DNA of 64,000 nt from an uncultured Gammaproteobacteria bacterium (lineage in GTDB: Bacteria; Pseudomonadota; Gammaproteobacteria; JACCXJ01), in NCBI GenBank assembly GCA_963764725.1, contig CAVXTM010000018.1, positions 160,001-224,000 of the forward strand, in the 5' to 3' direction. The notes under the pieces were generated by a model, which did no database searches, was not told the DNA's origin, and saw nothing but the letters and a program-made list of their open reading frames with translations. A program made the position numbers and the translations under genes. The first letter of the stretch is position 1; every line of letters starts with the position of its first letter. Of this stretch, positions 5,429 to 54,105 are shown piece after piece.

Positions 5429-5443
5429 GGTTCAAAGAAGGGT

Positions 5444-5625
5444 GCTCTCCGCAGCGCCGTTACGGGCCTTCGACTTGAACCGAGGGTTCAAGAATGGAAC
5501 ATCGCGAGGCGAATCAGGCCTTCCGCTACGAGAGCGGACTGCTCAACATCGCCTACCGGTCAGTTCCTTTGGTTTCTTAATTAGGCTCAAGGATACCCGA
5601 CCCGTTGACGTACGCCGCAGAGAGC
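5444..5625 (-). ncRNA. ssrS: 6S RNA
   Basis: ~180 nt with complementary ends directly downstream of zapA; CCTTGAGCC and CTTGAACC..GGTTCAAG motifs. Confidence 0.9.
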
Positions 5626-5638
5626 GTCAACCATAAAT

Positions 5639-10120: not shown

Positions 10121-10549
10121 ATGGCAGCTACAGACGAACAGTTAGAACAGAAACAGTTGGAGATCGAACAGACATTCGTCGAGGCAGGCGTCAAACGTCT
10201 TCGACGCAAGGAAAGAGCTTCGGCAAGGAGAAGAGGGCGTGTGGCCACAAAGCTTGGACGTGATCTCATCCGGCACTGTTTCATTCAGCTTGAACGTGCA
10301 ATCAAGAACAAGCAACGCAATGTGCTCCAAGCGCGGAAGCTCCCTCGTGCCGCCCTCCCCTTGATTTCACTTAAACCAGGGAAGCTTGCATTCGTTTGCC
10401 TGTACGTCGCAGTGAGCGCGATGAGGGAGAGGGAAGTCCAACAAGGGCGATGGCCACCGCTAGCCCAACTCGCACGTGACATCGGCTGGCTCTGTCAACG
10501 CGAGTACAAACTAACGAGGCTTTGCCTCAGACCGCCAAGATATATTTAG
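10121..10549 (+). pseudogene. N-terminal domain of a T7-like single-subunit RNA polymerase, truncated at ~10515
   Basis: QLEIEQTFVEAGVKRLR, LKPGKLAFVCL and LARDIGWLCQRE align by eye with T7 RNAP QLALEHESYEMGEARFR, IKPEAVAYITI and VASAIGRAIEDE. Confidence 0.7.
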
Positions 10550-11117
10550 GTAGCGTGTAAGTTTGGTTTGGGGTAAGAAGGCTCCGGTCGAGCCTGCAGG
10601 GGCATGCCCTGAATAATTAAAGTACGAGCTCGAAGCTCAATGGGTCCGATGGACCCGTGGACGACCGGAGCCTGCCATGACACTACCACAAAGTGTGACC
10701 GAAGTTCTACGTGATCACGTGAGATTGGAGTGCGAGTCGATTGATCGGATGTACCTCAACGTCTACGTGCCGCAGTTACAGAGGGTCGGCGGGGTGGTGT
10801 GGTATCTGCGGGGGCATCTGGGCCAGAGGTTTGCCTCCACCGCGGCGGTGGCACCGAAGAGCGCGGCGTTTGTGGGGGCGATTGAGCAGTATGCCAAGCG
10901 CCACCGGATCGAGGTGGTAAGCTTCCAGAAAGGCCAACGCAAAGATGATATCACCCAGCAGTACCTGCACCGTTTTCGCCGAACCGAAGGTGTGCTGTAT
11001 ATCGGCAAGGCGCAGGAGAAGGCGCGGGTAATGCGTACCGCGCGGCGCCGATGCGCACGGAGCGGAATGACCTATCCGTGGATCGTAGAGTCCACGGCGA
11101 TGGTGAACCATTACTTT
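10511..11117 (+). mobile_element. Truncated putative Rep_trans-like mobile element (hairpin end, structured leader, N-terminal ORF fragment from 10677)
   Basis: ECESIDRMYLNVYVP...VNHYF parallels CCFDRIVITGTLP...CLHYYFY of ORF 52391-53953; shared end motif. Confidence 0.65.
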
Positions 11118-20468: not shown

Positions 20469-22906
20469 CCACCCTGACCATCGACCAACTGCTGCGGGAG
20501 AACGAGGACTTGCGCCGCCGGCTGGAGGAGGCCGAGGATGCCCTCCGCGCTCTCCGTGCCGGCGAGGTGGATGCCGTCCTCGTCGAGGCCGAGCGCGAGC
20601 AGGTCTACACCCTGGAGACGGCCGACAAGCCCTATCGGCTGCTGGTCGAGCAGATGCCCCACGCCGCGGCGACGCTCACCGCCGACGGCGACGATCATCT
20701 ACTGCAACCGCCGCTTCGCCGAGCTGCTCAGGCGGCCGCTGCACTCATTGCTCGGCAAGCCGATCGACGACTTCGTCGCCCCCGACAGCCGGCCGCTTCT
20801 CGAAGGCCCTGCTGCGCGACGGCCAAGCCGCCGAGGTCCAGGGGGAGGTCGTCCTGCAGCGGGCTGACGGCACGCCGGTGCCGGTCTACCTCGGCGTCAG
20901 CGCCTTGCAGGAAGGCGCCCTCGGGTTGTGCCTGATGGTCACCGACCTGACCGAGCAACGGCACTACCAGGAGTTGCAGCGCACCCAGGCGGCCCTGCGC
21001 GAAAGCGAGCGCCGCTTGCGCGAAATGATTGACGCGCTCCCTGTGGCAATCTACACCACCGACGTCCAGGGCCGGCTCACGCACTTCAATCCGGCAGCGG
21101 TCGAATTTTCCGGCCGCGTGCCGGAGCTGGGCTCTCGATTCTTGGTGCGTGACCTGGAAACTGTATCAGCCCCGACGGCACGCCGCTGCCGCACGATGAA
21201 TGCGCTATGGCCCTGGCCCTCAAGGAAGGCCGGGCTGTCCGCGGCACGGAAACCATCGCCGAGCGTCCCGACGGCAAGCGCGTCTGGTTCATGCCCTACC
21301 CGACGCCGCTGCGCGATGCCGAAGGCCGGGTCGTCGGGGGCATCAACATGCTGCTCGACATCACCGAACGCAAGCAGGGCGAGCGCGCTGCTGCATTGCT
21401 GTCTTCCATTGTCGATTCCTCCGAGGACGCGATCGTCAGCAAAGACCTCAACGGCATCATCACCAGTTGGAACAAAAGCGCGGAGCGGCTGTTCGGCTAC
21501 TCGGCTGAGGAAGCGATCGGGCAGTCCATCACCATGCTTATTCCCGCGAACCGGCGCGGCGAAGAGGCTGAAATTCTGGACCGCCTCAGGCGGGGCGAGC
21601 GCGTGGATCATTTCGATACGATCCGCATCCGCAAGGATCGTTCTCCGGTTCCGATTTCCCTCACAATTTCTCCGATCAGAGACTCCGTAGGGCGCATCAT
21701 CGGCGCATCGAAAATCGCCCGCGATATCACCTCGCGCAAAGAGATGGAGGCGGCCCTGAAGGAGGCCGACCGCCGCAAGGACGAGTTTCTGGCGACGCTG
21801 GCCCACGAGCTGCGCAACCCGCTGGCCCCGATCCGCAACGCCGTGCAAATCCTCATGGCCAAAGGCCCGCCCGACCCGGAACTGCAATGGGCCCGCGGCG
21901 TGATCGACCGCCAGGTGCAGCAGATGGCCCGGCTGCTCGACGACCTGCTCGACGTCTCCCGCATCTCCCGCAACACGACTGGAGCTCCGCAAGGAGCGGG
22001 TCGACCTGGCCGCGGTGGTGGAGGCCGCCCTGGAGACCAGCCGCCCGCTCATCGAGGCCGGCGGCCACGAACTCACCGTCACTCTGCCGCCCGAGCCGAT
22101 CCACCTGGACGCCGACCCGGTGCGGCTGGCCCAGGTGTTCGCCAACCTGCTCAACAACGCCGCCAAGTACACCGAGGAGGGCGGTCGCATCTGGCTCGAC
22201 CGCCGAGCGGCAGGGGAGCGACGTGATCGTGTCGGTCAAGGACAACGGCATCGGCATCGCCGCCGAGATGCTGCCGCGCATCTTCGAGATTTTCTCGCAG
22301 TCGAATCCGGCGCTGGTGCGGTCGCAGGGCGGACTCGGCATCGGCCTGTCGCTGGTCAAGGGGCTGGTCGAGCTGCACGGCGGGAGCATCGAGGCCCGCA
22401 GCGACGGGCCGGGCCAGGGAAGCGAGTTCGTCGTCCGCCTGCCGGTCGCCGTGGAGACGCTTATCCAGGAACCGGCGCGGCCGGGCGAGGACGAACAGCC
22501 AAAGCCCGTGACCACGCGCCGCATCCTGATCGTGGACGACAACCGGGACAGTGCCGACAGCCTGGCGATGCTCTTGAAGATCATGGGCAACGAGGTCGGC
22601 ACGGCCTACGACGGCGAGCAGGCCGTCGAAGCGGCCGGGGCGTTGCGACCCGACGTGGTGCTGCTCGACATCGGGATGCCGAAGCTGAACGGCTACGACG
22701 CCTGCCGCCGCATCCGGGAACAGCCGTGGGGCCAGGGGATGTTCCTCATCGCCCTGACCGGCTGGGGCCAGGAGGAAGACCGCCGCCGCACCGAAGAGGC
22801 CGGTTTCGATCAGCACATCGTCAAGCCCGTGGACCCCGCCGCCCTCATGAAGTTGCTGGCTTCTTTGTCCGCGGAGCAGGGAGGCCGGCTAACCAGTAAG
22901 GATTGA
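20465..22906 (+). CDS. Multi-PAS hybrid histidine kinase with receiver domain, several frameshifts
   Basis: Three PAS segments, [42 protein letters not shown]. Confidence 0.88.
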
Positions 22907-23110
22907 GACGACCATGAATGGTCGTTTCAATCTAATTCTAATTTTCAAGAAGCCCAATCACGTCTTCCCTATTTCACGTTATGCGAGATAGGAGATTTGA
23001 AGCGCTCTTGTCAGACGAATGACGGCATCACGACTTTCGTCGCCATAAAGGCAGGAAGCACCCCAGCTCCACAGGAATACGGCCGTCCCATTCCCGCGCT
23101 TGCGTACTGC

Positions 23111-52311: not shown

Positions 52312-54034
52312 TCCCGAATCAGGCATAGGAGCAAGGTTAATATCTCTTAGTCCCTTATCCATGAAATCTTGTGCAAAAAAGCAAAGAGTGTCATGCATGA
52401 GCGGTATTGAGAGCAGGCATGACCACATACTCTCGGATAGCGAGTGCGCTGCTGAGCACACGACGACCGAATGTCGTGAGGTAGTACTTGTAGCGATGTC
52501 CAATCTTTTTGATGAGGCCATGGGTGCGCAAGCGTTTCAACCAGTAGGAGGCACGGCCGGTGGAGAGATCCCGGAGATGGGCTCGGAGATCGGAGGCGCG
52601 AAAGCCGCTGATGTTCCACTCCCCGCGGGCGAGGGTAATAAAAAGGCTATGATCTTCACCGAGGAAGAGATTGAAGCCCCGATAGGAGCGGTCTTTCTCT
52701 CGTACAGGTTTGGCCATTTTGTCGATGGCGTGCAGAGCTGCATTGGGGTTATCGATGCTGGCCATGAAGCTGAGATAGCGTTCATTGGCAGCATGCATCA
52801 GCTCTCGCAGATCGGGGAGGCTATAGATGTTTTTTCGCAGGGGTGCGAGTTTGAATTGCTTGCGCCCATTGCGTTGTTCCACCCAACGGTGGTGTTTGAA
52901 GAAGGAGACATCGTTGGCGGTGCATTCCACCCGAGCCATGAGACTGAATTTATCGTAGAGCTTGAGGCTTGCTGGTCCCATATGATGGCGGATGCGTGTA
53001 CCCTGAATGCGGGTGTGAAAATCGTTACCGGCCTCCCCGCTGAAGGCCGAGGTGAGTTTGCGTCCCAAGAAGGTGGCGACGTGTTCTGCCTTGAGGGCAT
53101 GCACGGCGGTACGCACGATGGCTTGATAGAGGGGTTGGAAATCGGCTTGGCGGTGGAAGATGACATCGGTCGAGAAAGCCAGGGCCAGGGAGTGGCCCTG
53201 CTTGGCGCGCCGAGGATGCAACTCCACCTGCATGAAGCTCCAGTGATAACCAGCGCGAAACTGACCCAAGATAGGACAGAAGCTTTTCGCCCATCGGTCC
53301 AAACGCCGATGCAAGCCTTTGGGATCGAGGCTATCGGCAAGCGCCTGAGCCTGTTGGGGATCGCCGATGGACAAGAAGGCATTATCGGCGCGCTCAAAGG
53401 CGATCCCTGTCTTGGTCAGTCGTTGGGCTAACCAGTGATGGCCGTTCAAATAGACCTGCAGGCGAAACGGTGCCCAGGTGGGTACTCGGACATAACAGAG
53501 CCCGAAGATCTCATCGATGAAATAGAAGTAATAATGCAAACACTTGCCCGGGGTAGACTTCAAACGGGTCGTATGCTGAAGCTTGTCATGCCAGGGGCGA
53601 TACGAAGGACAGGCCTCCATCGCCGAGAAGATATGCACCAGCCCCGGGTGCTCACCGCGCAAAGCCAAAATCGCTTTGATCCGTTCTTCTTTACGAAACG
53701 CCTTGTAATGACGGATGAATTCAATTTCCAACGAAGCCTCAGCGGCCAGCCGCTCGGCATGGGTCCGAAGCGCCTCGCGCAGCGGTTCTGCCCAGCGGGG
53801 ATAGTCAAACAGACGCATACCCCGGACACCCAAATACCGGGCCATAGCCTCGGCATGGGCGATCTCCGGAAGCGTGCCAGTGATCACGATGCGGTCAAAG
53901 CAACAAAGCACCGCGGCGATCTTCTCTTGATGGCGTTCAACAAAGGAGTTCATGGCGACGACCCATCTCAGTTCTTATTGCCCATCCGCCAGAATAGTAC
54001 ATTCAACACCTTGGTTCCGGCTATGCCGGGTTAG
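52312..54034 (-). mobile_element. Putative Rep_trans-like mobile element with hairpin end
   Basis: Single 520-aa ORF; upstream end CTAAC-CCGGC-ATA-GCCGG-AA-CCAAG; degenerate inverted copy at 52312-52336. Confidence 0.65.
52391..53953 (-). CDS. Putative rolling-circle-type transposase (Rep_trans-like core plus C-terminal wHTH)
   Basis: QVE[15-aa insertion]FSTD, KLYDK, RVE motifs; C-terminal wHTH (LKRLRTHGLIKKIGHRYKYYLT). Confidence 0.6.
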   Translation of the reverse strand: MNSFVERHQEKIAAVLCCFDRIVITGTLPEIAHAEAMARYLGVRGMRLFDYPRWAEPLREALRTHAERLAAEASLEIEFIRHYKAFRKEERIKAILALRGEHPGLVHIFSAMEACPSYRPWHDKLQHTTRLKSTPGKCLHYYFYFIDEIFGLCYVRVPTWAPFRLQVYLNGHHWLAQRLTKTGIAFERADNAFLSIGDPQQAQALADSLDPKGLHRRLDRWAKSFCPILGQFRAGYHWSFMQVELHPRRAKQGHSLALAFSTDVIFHRQADFQPLYQAIVRTAVHALKAEHVATFLGRKLTSAFSGEAGNDFHTRIQGTRIRHHMGPASLKLYDKFSLMARVECTANDVSFFKHHRWVEQRNGRKQFKLAPLRKNIYSLPDLRELMHAANERYLSFMASIDNPNAALHAIDKMAKPVREKDRSYRGFNLFLGEDHSLFITLARGEWNISGFRASDLRAHLRDLSTGRASYWLKRLRTHGLIKKIGHRYKYYLTTFGRRVLSSALAIREYVVMPALNTAHA

Positions 54035-54105
54035 GGTAAGTAGCCTCTGTTACCAGAAGCCTCCGCACAAACCCGGACGTACAGTTTTTCCCGCATCCGG
54101 TTCCT
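54035..54105 (-). other. Group II intron 3' fragment (domains V-VI)
   Basis: GAACCGGATGCGGGAAAAACTGTACGTCCGGGTTT followed by GTGCGGAGGCTTCTGGTAACAGAGGCTACTTACCC. Confidence 0.8.

Follow-up and report, generated by a model that had tools for sequence, protein, structure and literature searches.

A widespread family of bacterial insertion sequences with a hairpin left end and a candidate Rep_trans-type transposase

Insertion sequences of the IS200/IS605 family (such as IS608 and ISDra2), which are moved by the Y1 HUH transposase TnpA, have no inverted repeats, carry hairpins near their ends, use a strict short target and do not duplicate it. Here we describe two elements, termed A and B, in a 64,000-nucleotide stretch of DNA from an uncultured Gammaproteobacteria bacterium (contig CAVXTM010000018.1, positions 160,001 to 224,000; the window in the following), which are distant members of one insertion sequence family, very widespread and without a name in Pfam or NCBIfam. 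Elements of this family are 1.65–1.8 kb long and hold a single open reading frame (ORF) of ~505–535 aa. For family-wide comparison we used 80 loci with relatives of the element B protein (P0001; 50–70% identity), termed clade B, and 80 loci with relatives of the element A ORF (59–98%), termed clade A. Like the IS200/IS605 elements, the family lacks terminal inverted repeats, has a hairpin and a short target at its left end (LE), apparently makes no duplication and shows junctions of its right end (RE) with the LE that have nothing extra in between. It differs in its 505-aa protein, which has a TBP-like fold and no HUH domain (no Y1_Tnp match in Pfam or NCBIfam), in a hairpin that touches the cleavage motif rather than lying 10–20 nt away, and in the lack of an orientation bias among 13 element copies. 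With the Y2 HUH elements IS91, ISCR and Helitron it shares asymmetric hairpin ends and a tetranucleotide at the insertion point, whereas the IS91-type protein of this genome has HPHIH and a zinc ribbon and P0001 has neither; no evidence for IS91-style read-through or one-ended products of the family was found here.

A different set of enzymes, the Rep_trans initiators and MOBT relaxases (PF02486: pT181 RepC/RepD, pSTK1 Rep, ICEBs1 NicK, RelSt3), cut at CT'AA, a conserved nick site within the loop of a GC-rich hairpin, and remain bound to the 5' end; pT181-type Rep specifically binds an inverted repeat that directly follows the nick on its downstream side, according to the available part of PMC9371924. 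Their motif order, as given in the accessible text of PMC5714925, is an amino-terminal Asp (N'), RxD (I), T/SxY/ExG (II), YxK with the Tyr in a β-sheet (III) and W/LxRxE (IV). The family of elements A and B resembles them in the two-repeat TBP-like fold of its modelled protein and in an extra helix-turn-helix domain. At the level of sequence pattern it may also share with them an amino-terminal Asp, a Y-x-K whose Tyr lies on a β-strand, and h-x-R-x-E on the strand that comes next (same part of PMC5714925). A further possible likeness is in the DNA site: the known enzymes use CT'AA at a GC-rich hairpin (same part of PMC9371924), and CTAA is found at both ends of clade B and at the LE of clade A (CTAG at its RE). 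Differences are the lack of detectable sequence homology, a catalytic domain of ~400 aa versus ~200–270 aa, and the setting, as the gene lies in a chromosomal element of 1.7 kb that is multicopy and has two defined ends, rather than in a plasmid, phage or integrative and conjugative element (ICE). The archaeal Rep-Arvir proteins (DUF7845; RepSNJ2, archaeal pleolipoviruses), in which a TBP-fold domain precedes a MarR-like winged helix and which act on a hairpin, share with the family this domain order, the hairpin DNA site, the same weak structure matches (giant-virus TBPs and the Inoviridae protein A0A345MNV4) and an HYY motif, H140-Y141-Y142 in the family, as far as the accessible portion of PMC13107129 describes them. 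By the same account they belong to an archaeal viral or plasmid replicon rather than a bacterial transposable element and have a third carboxy-terminal domain, which the family lacks; no PF25227 (DUF7845) match was found among 40 family amino-terminal domains.

Ends of elements A and B and their conservation

The initial annotation of the window had pointed to two strings, each CTAAC followed by a short hairpin and CCAAG, as a shared end of two distant elements. Both strings were found letter for letter, and both sites are the exact LEs of members of one family. The features concerned are listed below, with the proposed nick marked by a slash.

10511-10539, plus strand: motif A, CTAAC GAGGC TTT GCCTC AGACCG CCAAG, the LE of element A (CT/AAC, stem GAGGC/GCCTC, loop TTT, then AGACCGCCAAG)
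10511-11115, plus strand: element A, a 605-bp truncated stump of a 1,820-bp element, single copy in the genome
10677-11165, plus strand: truncated ORF of element A, residues 1-147 (to 11117) homologous to the ~535-aa family protein
54034-54010, minus strand: motif B, CTAAC CCGGC ATA GCCGG AA CCAAG
54010-54034, minus strand: LE of element B (CT/AAC, stem CCGGC/GCCGG, loop ATA, then AACCAAG)
52347-54034, minus strand: element B, full copy, 1,688 bp from CTAAC to ACTAA; own-genome matches stop at these bases
52347-52400, minus strand: RE of element B, imperfect hairpin, then ...GGATAAGGGACT/AA
52391-53953, minus strand: ORF of element B (P0001), 520 aa, putative transposase with a TBP-like two-repeat domain and a carboxy-terminal winged helix

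A perfect hairpin (5-bp stem, 3-nt loop) directly after CTAAC is present at these two sites and nowhere else on either strand of the window, against a mean number of 0.093 in 300 first-order Markov simulations; two such sites were reached in 1/300 simulations and in 0/300 with CCAAG within 11 nt as well. The 4.2-Mb assembly contains 13 of them, 10 of which mark ends of A or B elements. Folded as single strands of DNA, both stems reach moderate energies (−4.0 kcal/mol, z −2.0, for A; −5.3 to −5.5 kcal/mol, z −1.8, for B). With the boundaries and the conservation described below, we regard it as virtually certain that the CTAAC-hairpin motif is a true end of a mobile element. A direct BLASTP comparison of the two window ORFs, which are ~25% identical, was not significant; P0001 and ORF A belong to one family because both match the same plasmid genes (P0001 with 25–26% identity over 94% of its length, E ~1e-24), and a Burkholderia plasmid protein used as query finds both window loci.

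The boundaries of element A were delineated using a metagenome contig (L096) that carries a 98%-identical, full 1,820-bp element A in a different context. By blastn, its positions 246–849 align to window positions 10511–11115 at 98%, with the similarity starting at 10511, the C of CTAAC. Since this similarity spans only 10511–11115, the window copy is a left-end stump of 605 bp. The break point of its ORF lies inside a conserved HYYFY motif, and residues 1–147 are 73% identical to a Burkholderia sp. SFA1 plasmid protein. Element B is present in ~10 copies, of which five full ones are at least 99% identical, and full copies match one another from 1–2 bases before CTAAC through ACTAA; to judge from these copies, element B is intact and recently active or amplified. 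A scan of the genome yielded 10 LEs, with CCTAAC and unrelated DNA in front in 9/10 and ATGAAC in 1/10, and 11 REs, all of which (11/11) end in ACTAA, reading ...GGATAAGGGACTAA, followed by unrelated DNA. The hairpin of the RE folds with −6 kcal/mol (z −2.2). Contigs of four public sequencing runs leave the window sequence at 52347 (3 runs) and at 54034/54035 (3 runs), one flank having G in place of C before CTAAC; because several of these flanks equal other element B copies in this genome, they are not independent samples.

A search for the motif upstream of homologs found it ahead of 68/80 ORF B relatives and 57/80 ORF A relatives, and in many of the remaining loci the contig stops too soon. 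For clade B this count refers to the hairpin plus AACCAA[AG] within 260 nt upstream of the ORF, and the 12 misses include loci with only 10–18 nt of upstream sequence and amino-terminally truncated genes. The five bases before the stem in the 63 distinct clade-B ends were CTAAC (48), CCAAC (11), CTAAG (2), CTACG (1) and CTACC (1), preceded by C in 62/63, the exception being a junction contig. The clade-A ends read CTAAC (50), CTAGC (6) and GTAGC (1), and show no preferred base in front (t 18, a 14, g 13, c 12); among the 23 clade-A misses, ~9 had too little upstream sequence and ~11 lacked the motif in the stretch inspected.

The stem itself is mostly CCGGC/GCCGG in clade B, with the variants CTGGC/GCCAG, GCGG/CCGC and TCGGC/GCCGA, and GAGGC/GCCTC in clade A, with GGGGC/GCCCC in Rhodococcus plasmids. 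Across 53 distinct ends, 96.2% of stem cells pair, compared with 75.4% in shuffles, and the two outer stem pairs change on both sides (27 sequences each; CG/GC/UA and CG/AU/UA/GC). The covariation score was reached by 0/500 shuffles and slid registers drop to 19–44% paired; relatedness of the sequences inflates these figures, yet at least 5 independent pair types were seen. The LE hairpin is maintained via compensatory changes; its loop varies freely. CCAAG, counted as part of the motif by the initial annotation, turned out to be peculiar to the two window copies: the tail after the stem has the consensus AGACCGACGAG in element A relatives and AACCAAA(C/A)AG in element B relatives, so that both clades share only an ACC-R-A core. 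At several loci (L037:1094-1150, L101, L156, L164-L166) a reverse-complement copy of the left-end motif lies 20–40 nt inside the element and could form a long hairpin with it.

The right ends were read by eye in 70/80 clade-B loci, as an automated reading misplaced ~10/71. Left out were L025 and L053, in which the CT itself differs, L029 as a duplicate of L027, and L035, L042, L050, L054, L055, L058 and L087 for a broken ORF, a contig end or an unclear reading. The clade-B RE has the consensus ...TAAGGGACT, kept in relatives, followed by two bases (anatomy ...AAGGGACT-AA), namely AA (55/70), AT (5), AC (5), AG (3), GC (1) or TA (1). The clade-A RE reads ...TCAAGGA(A/C)TCT followed by AG in 32/35 and AC in 3/35 (anatomy ...AAGGAATCT-AG). 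No terminal inverted repeats between LE and RE were detected (P = 0.50 and 0.77).

Where both ends of a clade-A element could be read, the tetranucleotides differ in 21/25 loci (CTAA/CTAG 19, CTAA/CTAC 2), which excludes a 4-bp target duplication for this clade. In clade B, the bases after ...ACT differ between near-identical copies of the same genome (L022 versus L019-L021, L016 versus L017-L018, L094 versus L092/L095), and three pairs of otherwise identical 28-nt LEs (L028/L031, L067/L059, L041/L065) differ only in CT versus CC. A lineage-specific origin of the CCAAC left ends was considered and dropped, since these three pairs differ only there. In the simplest reading, the element proper would run from the AAC-hairpin to ...ACT, with the outer (C)C[T/C] on the left and AA/AN on the right coming from the target. 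The RE is joined to the LE via a single CTAA in contig L049 and via a single CTAG in L158. A paralogous empty site in this genome reads CAAGTTCCAC-CTAA-CAGCGCC where the copy on contig C10 has the RE ...GGGACTAA-CAGCGCC. The search for empty sites of locus L002, using its 800-bp flanks in 30 relatives, returned no flank match outside its own genome. Ends, junctions and the empty site agree with a reaction in which CT/AA is cleaved at either end, ACT becomes linked to AAC and the product inserts at CCT/AA with no duplication, but they fall short of proof. Sequence alone cannot separate a target CTAA from a nick site carried by the element together with a matching target.

Fold and conserved residues of the family protein

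P0001 has no Pfam or NCBIfam family; Pfam gave no match at E ≤ 0.1, and the only traces are two sub-threshold winged-helix matches at the carboxy terminus. An AlphaFold2 model built with 60 diverse relatives (pLDDT 92, pTM 0.82) shows a TBP-like two-repeat domain (~1–405) and a winged helix (406–520), with a single disordered stretch (243–254) that corresponds to a 15-aa insert of the window copy. In structure comparison, residues 406–520 match winged helices of the MarR/PadR/HxlR type with Z 9–10. Because winged-helix proteins filled the whole-protein structure search, the amino-terminal domain (~400 residues; N-domain) was searched alone, after it had been refolded from the insert-free copy L007 together with clade-A rows (pLDDT 90). 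Among 48,161 representative solved chains only 19 matched the N-domain at Z ≥ 5, and ranks 1–7 were taken by five TBP chains and two Rep_trans proteins: Sulfolobus TBP as the best match (Z 8.7, 174 aa), the TBPs of 7o4i, 5fur, 6e24 (Z 8.1, 7.9, 7.5) and 6cnb (Z 6.7), RepDE 4cwc_A at rank 5 (Z 7.2, 179 aa, root-mean-square deviation 4.8) and pSTK1 Rep 4cij_A at rank 7 (Z 6.4, 189 aa). For comparison, 8 Rep_trans proteins of this phylum match only 4cij, 4cwc and 4cwe in the PDB at E ≤ 0.01.

Foldseek against viral models (BFVD) returned giant-virus TBPs and Inoviridae replication proteins, including the Rep_trans protein A0A345MNV4 (probability 0.94, E 9.9e-3). Against the PDB it gave nothing at E ≤ 0.001 for the whole protein or the N-domain, with TBPs topping the N-domain list at E ~1e-2, and a PDB sequence search with the family profile yielded weak MarR matches only.

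Invariant or near-invariant residues that lie on strands are D20 (strand 1), Q242-x-E244-x-x-x-D, K331-x-Y333-D-K335 and h-x-R341-x-E343, with K331-x-Y333-D-K335 and V/M-x-R341-x-E343 on adjacent strands of the model. Together with a T-x-x-x-G after Q242-x-E244-x-x-x-D they follow, at the level of sequence pattern, the order of the Rep_trans motifs as published in the accessible part of PMC5714925. A Rep_trans protein from this phylum reads ...CRIYDKAKE...FWTRFELQF. A second invariant cluster, E113 and H140-Y-Y142-F-Y144, lies in the first repeat and recalls the KHYYM motif of RepSNJ2, as given in the available text of PMC13107129.

Proposed transposition route and its alternatives

We consider it rather probable that the family is a new one among insertion sequences, moved by a tyrosine nuclease with the Rep_trans/TBP fold. 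In the route we propose, the protein would be a Rep_trans-type tyrosine nicking-joining enzyme with Y333, D20, E244 and R341-x-E343 as candidate active site, and its winged helix or saddle would bind the LE hairpin. One strand would be nicked at CT/AA at both ends, in the window between 10512 and 10513 for element A and between 54033 and 54032 for element B, with Y333 cutting CT/AA and binding the element by its 5' A. At the RE, the 3'-OH of ...ACT would then attack the Tyr link, giving a single-stranded circle with a single CTAA, and the donor would be resealed to CCTAA after release of the circle. The circle would insert by the reverse reactions at CCT/AA (CT/AG in clade A) without target duplication. 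This would be a single-strand 'peel and paste' or rolling-circle route, as in IS200/IS605 and IS91, carried out by a different enzyme superfamily; a replication-coupled (rolling circle) and a peel and paste route are not distinguishable from these data. CT-AA with a GC-rich inverted repeat one base on is a third independent line that agrees with the fold and the motifs. The initial annotation had suggested a nick or origin end, with CTA(A) as the target, and this gains support from the boundaries, the conservation across the family, the shared CTA/CTAA and the Rep_trans-like protein.

Several observations weigh against this route. The fold scores are middling (Z 6.4–8.7), in a range common for models without a clear match, and the Rep proteins are outscored by TBPs, which have no enzymatic function. 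Rep_trans and DUF7845 profiles match 0/40 N-domains at E ≤ 10 in Pfam, where only scattered chance families appear, and two attempts to align the family with 8 Rep_trans proteins by hhalign were not significant (probability 0.2). The proposed equivalence of Y333, D20, E244 and E343 with Y191, D46, D142 and E214 of RepDE rests on pattern matching, and the recently amplified copies carry a 15-aa insert beside the proposed motif-I glutamate. In the family CTAA lies 1 nt 5' of the stem, whereas CT'AA of the Rep_trans/MOBT systems lies in the hairpin loop, going by the part of the literature cited above, and one element B copy (C10) has TG instead of CT before AAC. The L049 and L158 junctions could be tandem copies; neither a circle junction nor a precise excision was seen in the contigs of the four sequencing runs, and a strand bias of the element copies relative to GC skew is absent (9/13 positive, not informative). 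Finally, a 2–3 bp duplication (TA/CTA) would give nearly the same pictures, the CC left ends apart.

On another view, an ordinary cut-and-paste or copy-out/paste-in element is moved by an unrecognised transposase which duplicates TA or CTA, the hairpin being a palindromic site for a winged-helix dimer. CTA stands at both ends and once in the L049/L158 junctions and the empty paralog, which is also the pattern of a copy-out circle junction, and a palindrome read by a dimer would likewise show mirrored changes. Targets of the YTAR type are found in the IS5 and IS701 families and also count in its favour. What makes this view unlikely is the lack of terminal inverted repeats (P 0.50 and 0.77) and of a DDE or RNase H-like domain in Pfam, NCBIfam or the model, where ranks 1–7 are TBP-fold chains. 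Moreover, in 11/63 clade-B ends a CC at the LE stands against an unchanged CT at the RE, contrary to a duplication of CTA or TA, and a 13-bp palindrome with half-sites 8 bp apart would be short for a winged-helix dimer. Membership in the IS5 or IS701 type is likewise at odds with the data, as there is no DDE family and there are no inverted repeats, and the tetranucleotides differ in 21/25 clade-A loci.

The single core common to LE, RE, junction and empty site would also be expected from conservative site-specific recombination via CTA, performed by the chemistry of the element's own protein or by a recruited host recombinase with the protein as specificity factor. Databases indeed call the protein a MarR/ArsR regulator, and its only confident domain match is the DNA-binding winged helix (Z 9–10). 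We nevertheless hold this to be very improbable: the same ends across many phyla are hard to fit to one host recombinase, a specificity factor would not need ~400 residues that place invariant Tyr, Asp, Glu, Lys and Arg on a saddle sheet, and the single-ORF element has no recombinase gene. Slightly less credible still is an action of the hairpin as RNA, namely as a stem in the 5' leader that makes the transposase mRNA more stable or controls it and lies at the tip incidentally. On the coding strand it precedes the start codon by 56–150 nt, which would suit such a role, covariation fits RNA and DNA alike, and clade A has a further conserved, paired leader between hairpin and ATG (seen in the window and L014). 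On the other hand, 5 nt separate the stem from the element boundary in all clades, which makes its transcription from an internal promoter hardly feasible. It is also short and lacks a U-tract (−4 to −5.5 kcal/mol as DNA), and the adjoining CTAAC is as conserved as the stem.

Surroundings of the elements and spread of the family

Both LEs had been described as sitting where a host feature is cut. This holds in part: the elements do start within or next to recognisable remnants, of an RNA polymerase gene for A and a group II intron for B, while both matches lie below their cut-offs. The remaining features are as follows.

10121-10549, plus strand: amino-terminal fragment of a T7-type single-subunit RNA polymerase gene (Pfam RPOL_N match), cut at the LE of element A
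54030-54105, minus strand: group II intron domain V/VI-like stretch (Rfam RF00029, 30.4 bits against a gathering score of 40, E 0.0032)
53175-53219, minus strand: 45-bp in-frame insert in the P0001 ORF, directly after invariant E244; copy of a scattered short repeat
~22889-22955, plus strand: end of an IS91-family element, diverged copy
C10:265770-268366 of this genome (G000): locus L007, an odd element B copy whose AAC-hairpin adjoins the tip of a 5'-truncated IS4-like fragment

The RPOL_N match of ORF 10121-10549 (E 8.7e-6, 25.8 bits with a cut-off of 30.1) covers profile positions 1–134/334 and stops about at the start of element A. No match to the catalytic RNA_pol domain (PF00940) was found anywhere in the genome in a search whose controls were equally silent. 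The fragment probably represents the remains of a gene from a phage or plasmid. Downstream of the hairpin, the clade-A leader up to the ATG (window 10540-10676, plus strand) is kept in a Burkholderia plasmid (L014:2373-2500), with the paired segments GGCTCCGGTCGAGCC ... GGGTCCG..GACCC ... CCGGAGCC, and may constitute a structured 5' leader. In the right flank of the full element A in L096 (2066-2851), a group II intron splits an IS91-like hairpin end, and the reverse-transcriptase ORF of this intron starts at ~2655; in this contig mobile elements appear nested around CTAA sites. The window further contains a 6S RNA gene at 5442-5626 on the minus strand (Rfam RF00013, 73.7 bits, full length).

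At element B, the CCT in front of the LE is supplied by the group II intron-like stretch, and no match to a D1–D4 family of group II introns was found in Rfam at E up to 1. The 45-bp insert of its ORF is present in the transposase gene of all recently amplified copies and missing from the older, 92–94% identical copies L006-L008; a contig of run X5 jumps from 53174 to 53220 and thus lacks it as well. The repeat from which it is copied, TTGCATCC...CTGGCT, has ~25 further copies across the genome, and both this repeat and element-B-like fragments also occur in genomes of the same genus and family. The latter observation and the empty-site search rest partly on unpublished genomes (G001, G002, G005, G007-G010, G012, G014). 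Locus L007 is the sole element B copy in the genome with an intact, insert-free ORF of 505 aa. Its AAC-hairpin is preceded by the IS4-like fragment (...CCTAACTATG) rather than by CCT, and the DNA outside this composite is contiguous in a paralog, CAAGTTCCAC-CT-AACAGCGCC.

The IS91-family element of this genome is ~2.5 kb long and encodes a Y2 HUH transposase with HPHIH together with a tyrosine integrase (G000 C9:5975, C7:102552, C10:130601, C10:136655 and C15:168868). One end, (C)TAACCAGTAAGGATTGAGACGACCATGG..., forms a hairpin; the element ends in ...TAAC, and at C13 its end and the RE of an element B copy share a single CTAA.

The spread of the family was assessed in two clustered protein collections. 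In a 90%-clustered collection, 7,825/8,000 scored candidates match P0001 at E ≤ 0.001; the 120 matches listed have no Pfam domain (0/120), names given among the matches listed are 'hypothetical protein' and 'MarR family transcriptional regulator' ('MarR/ArsR' in databases elsewhere), and most of the listed matches sit on contigs of 1.6–2.5 kb. A 50%-clustered library contains 7,489 representatives at E ≤ 0.001, 687 of them at E ≤ 1e-30. By record title, the 80 GTDB loci come from Gammaproteobacteria, delta-proteobacterial groups, Acidobacteriota, Nitrospirota, Planctomycetota, Armatimonadota, Gemmatimonadota, Rokubacteria, Actinomycetes, Kiritimatiellia, Cloacimonadota and a Parcubacteria bin, and several near-identical copies per genome are common among them. 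Matches on plasmids were found in Burkholderia, Paraburkholderia, Caballeronia, Rhodococcus and Mycobacterium. The ESM Atlas holds only 'hypothetical protein' clusters for the family, one of them with HTH_5 in 12% of its members. A literature search, mostly outside subscription journals and without ISfinder, found no description of the family or of a Rep_trans-type transposase.

Whether this is the first insertion sequence family with a Rep_trans/TBP-fold tyrosine nuclease as transposase, and so a third, independent single-strand or rolling-circle solution after HUH-Y1 and HUH-Y2, is in our estimate evenly balanced. In the same reading it would employ an ancient nick site, the CT'AA known from pT181-type plasmids, filamentous phages and ICE relaxases, and be present in thousands of variants in at least a dozen bacterial phyla, annotated throughout as 'hypothetical' or 'MarR/ArsR regulator'. 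If this reading holds, a very common gene family labelled as transcription regulator would be a transposase that annotation pipelines and insertion sequence catalogues miss, and one that often sits on contigs of 1.6–2 kb that break assemblies. For the window, elements A and B would explain the two gene disruptions. The element is compact, comprising a single protein, a site of 5 nt and a hairpin of 13 nt, and might serve as a sequence-specific tool for joining single-stranded DNA. If the proposed route is correct, Rep_trans enzymes would join the HUH enzymes as a source of plasmid replication, conjugation and transposition, which would bear on the kinship of rolling-circle replicons and transposons.

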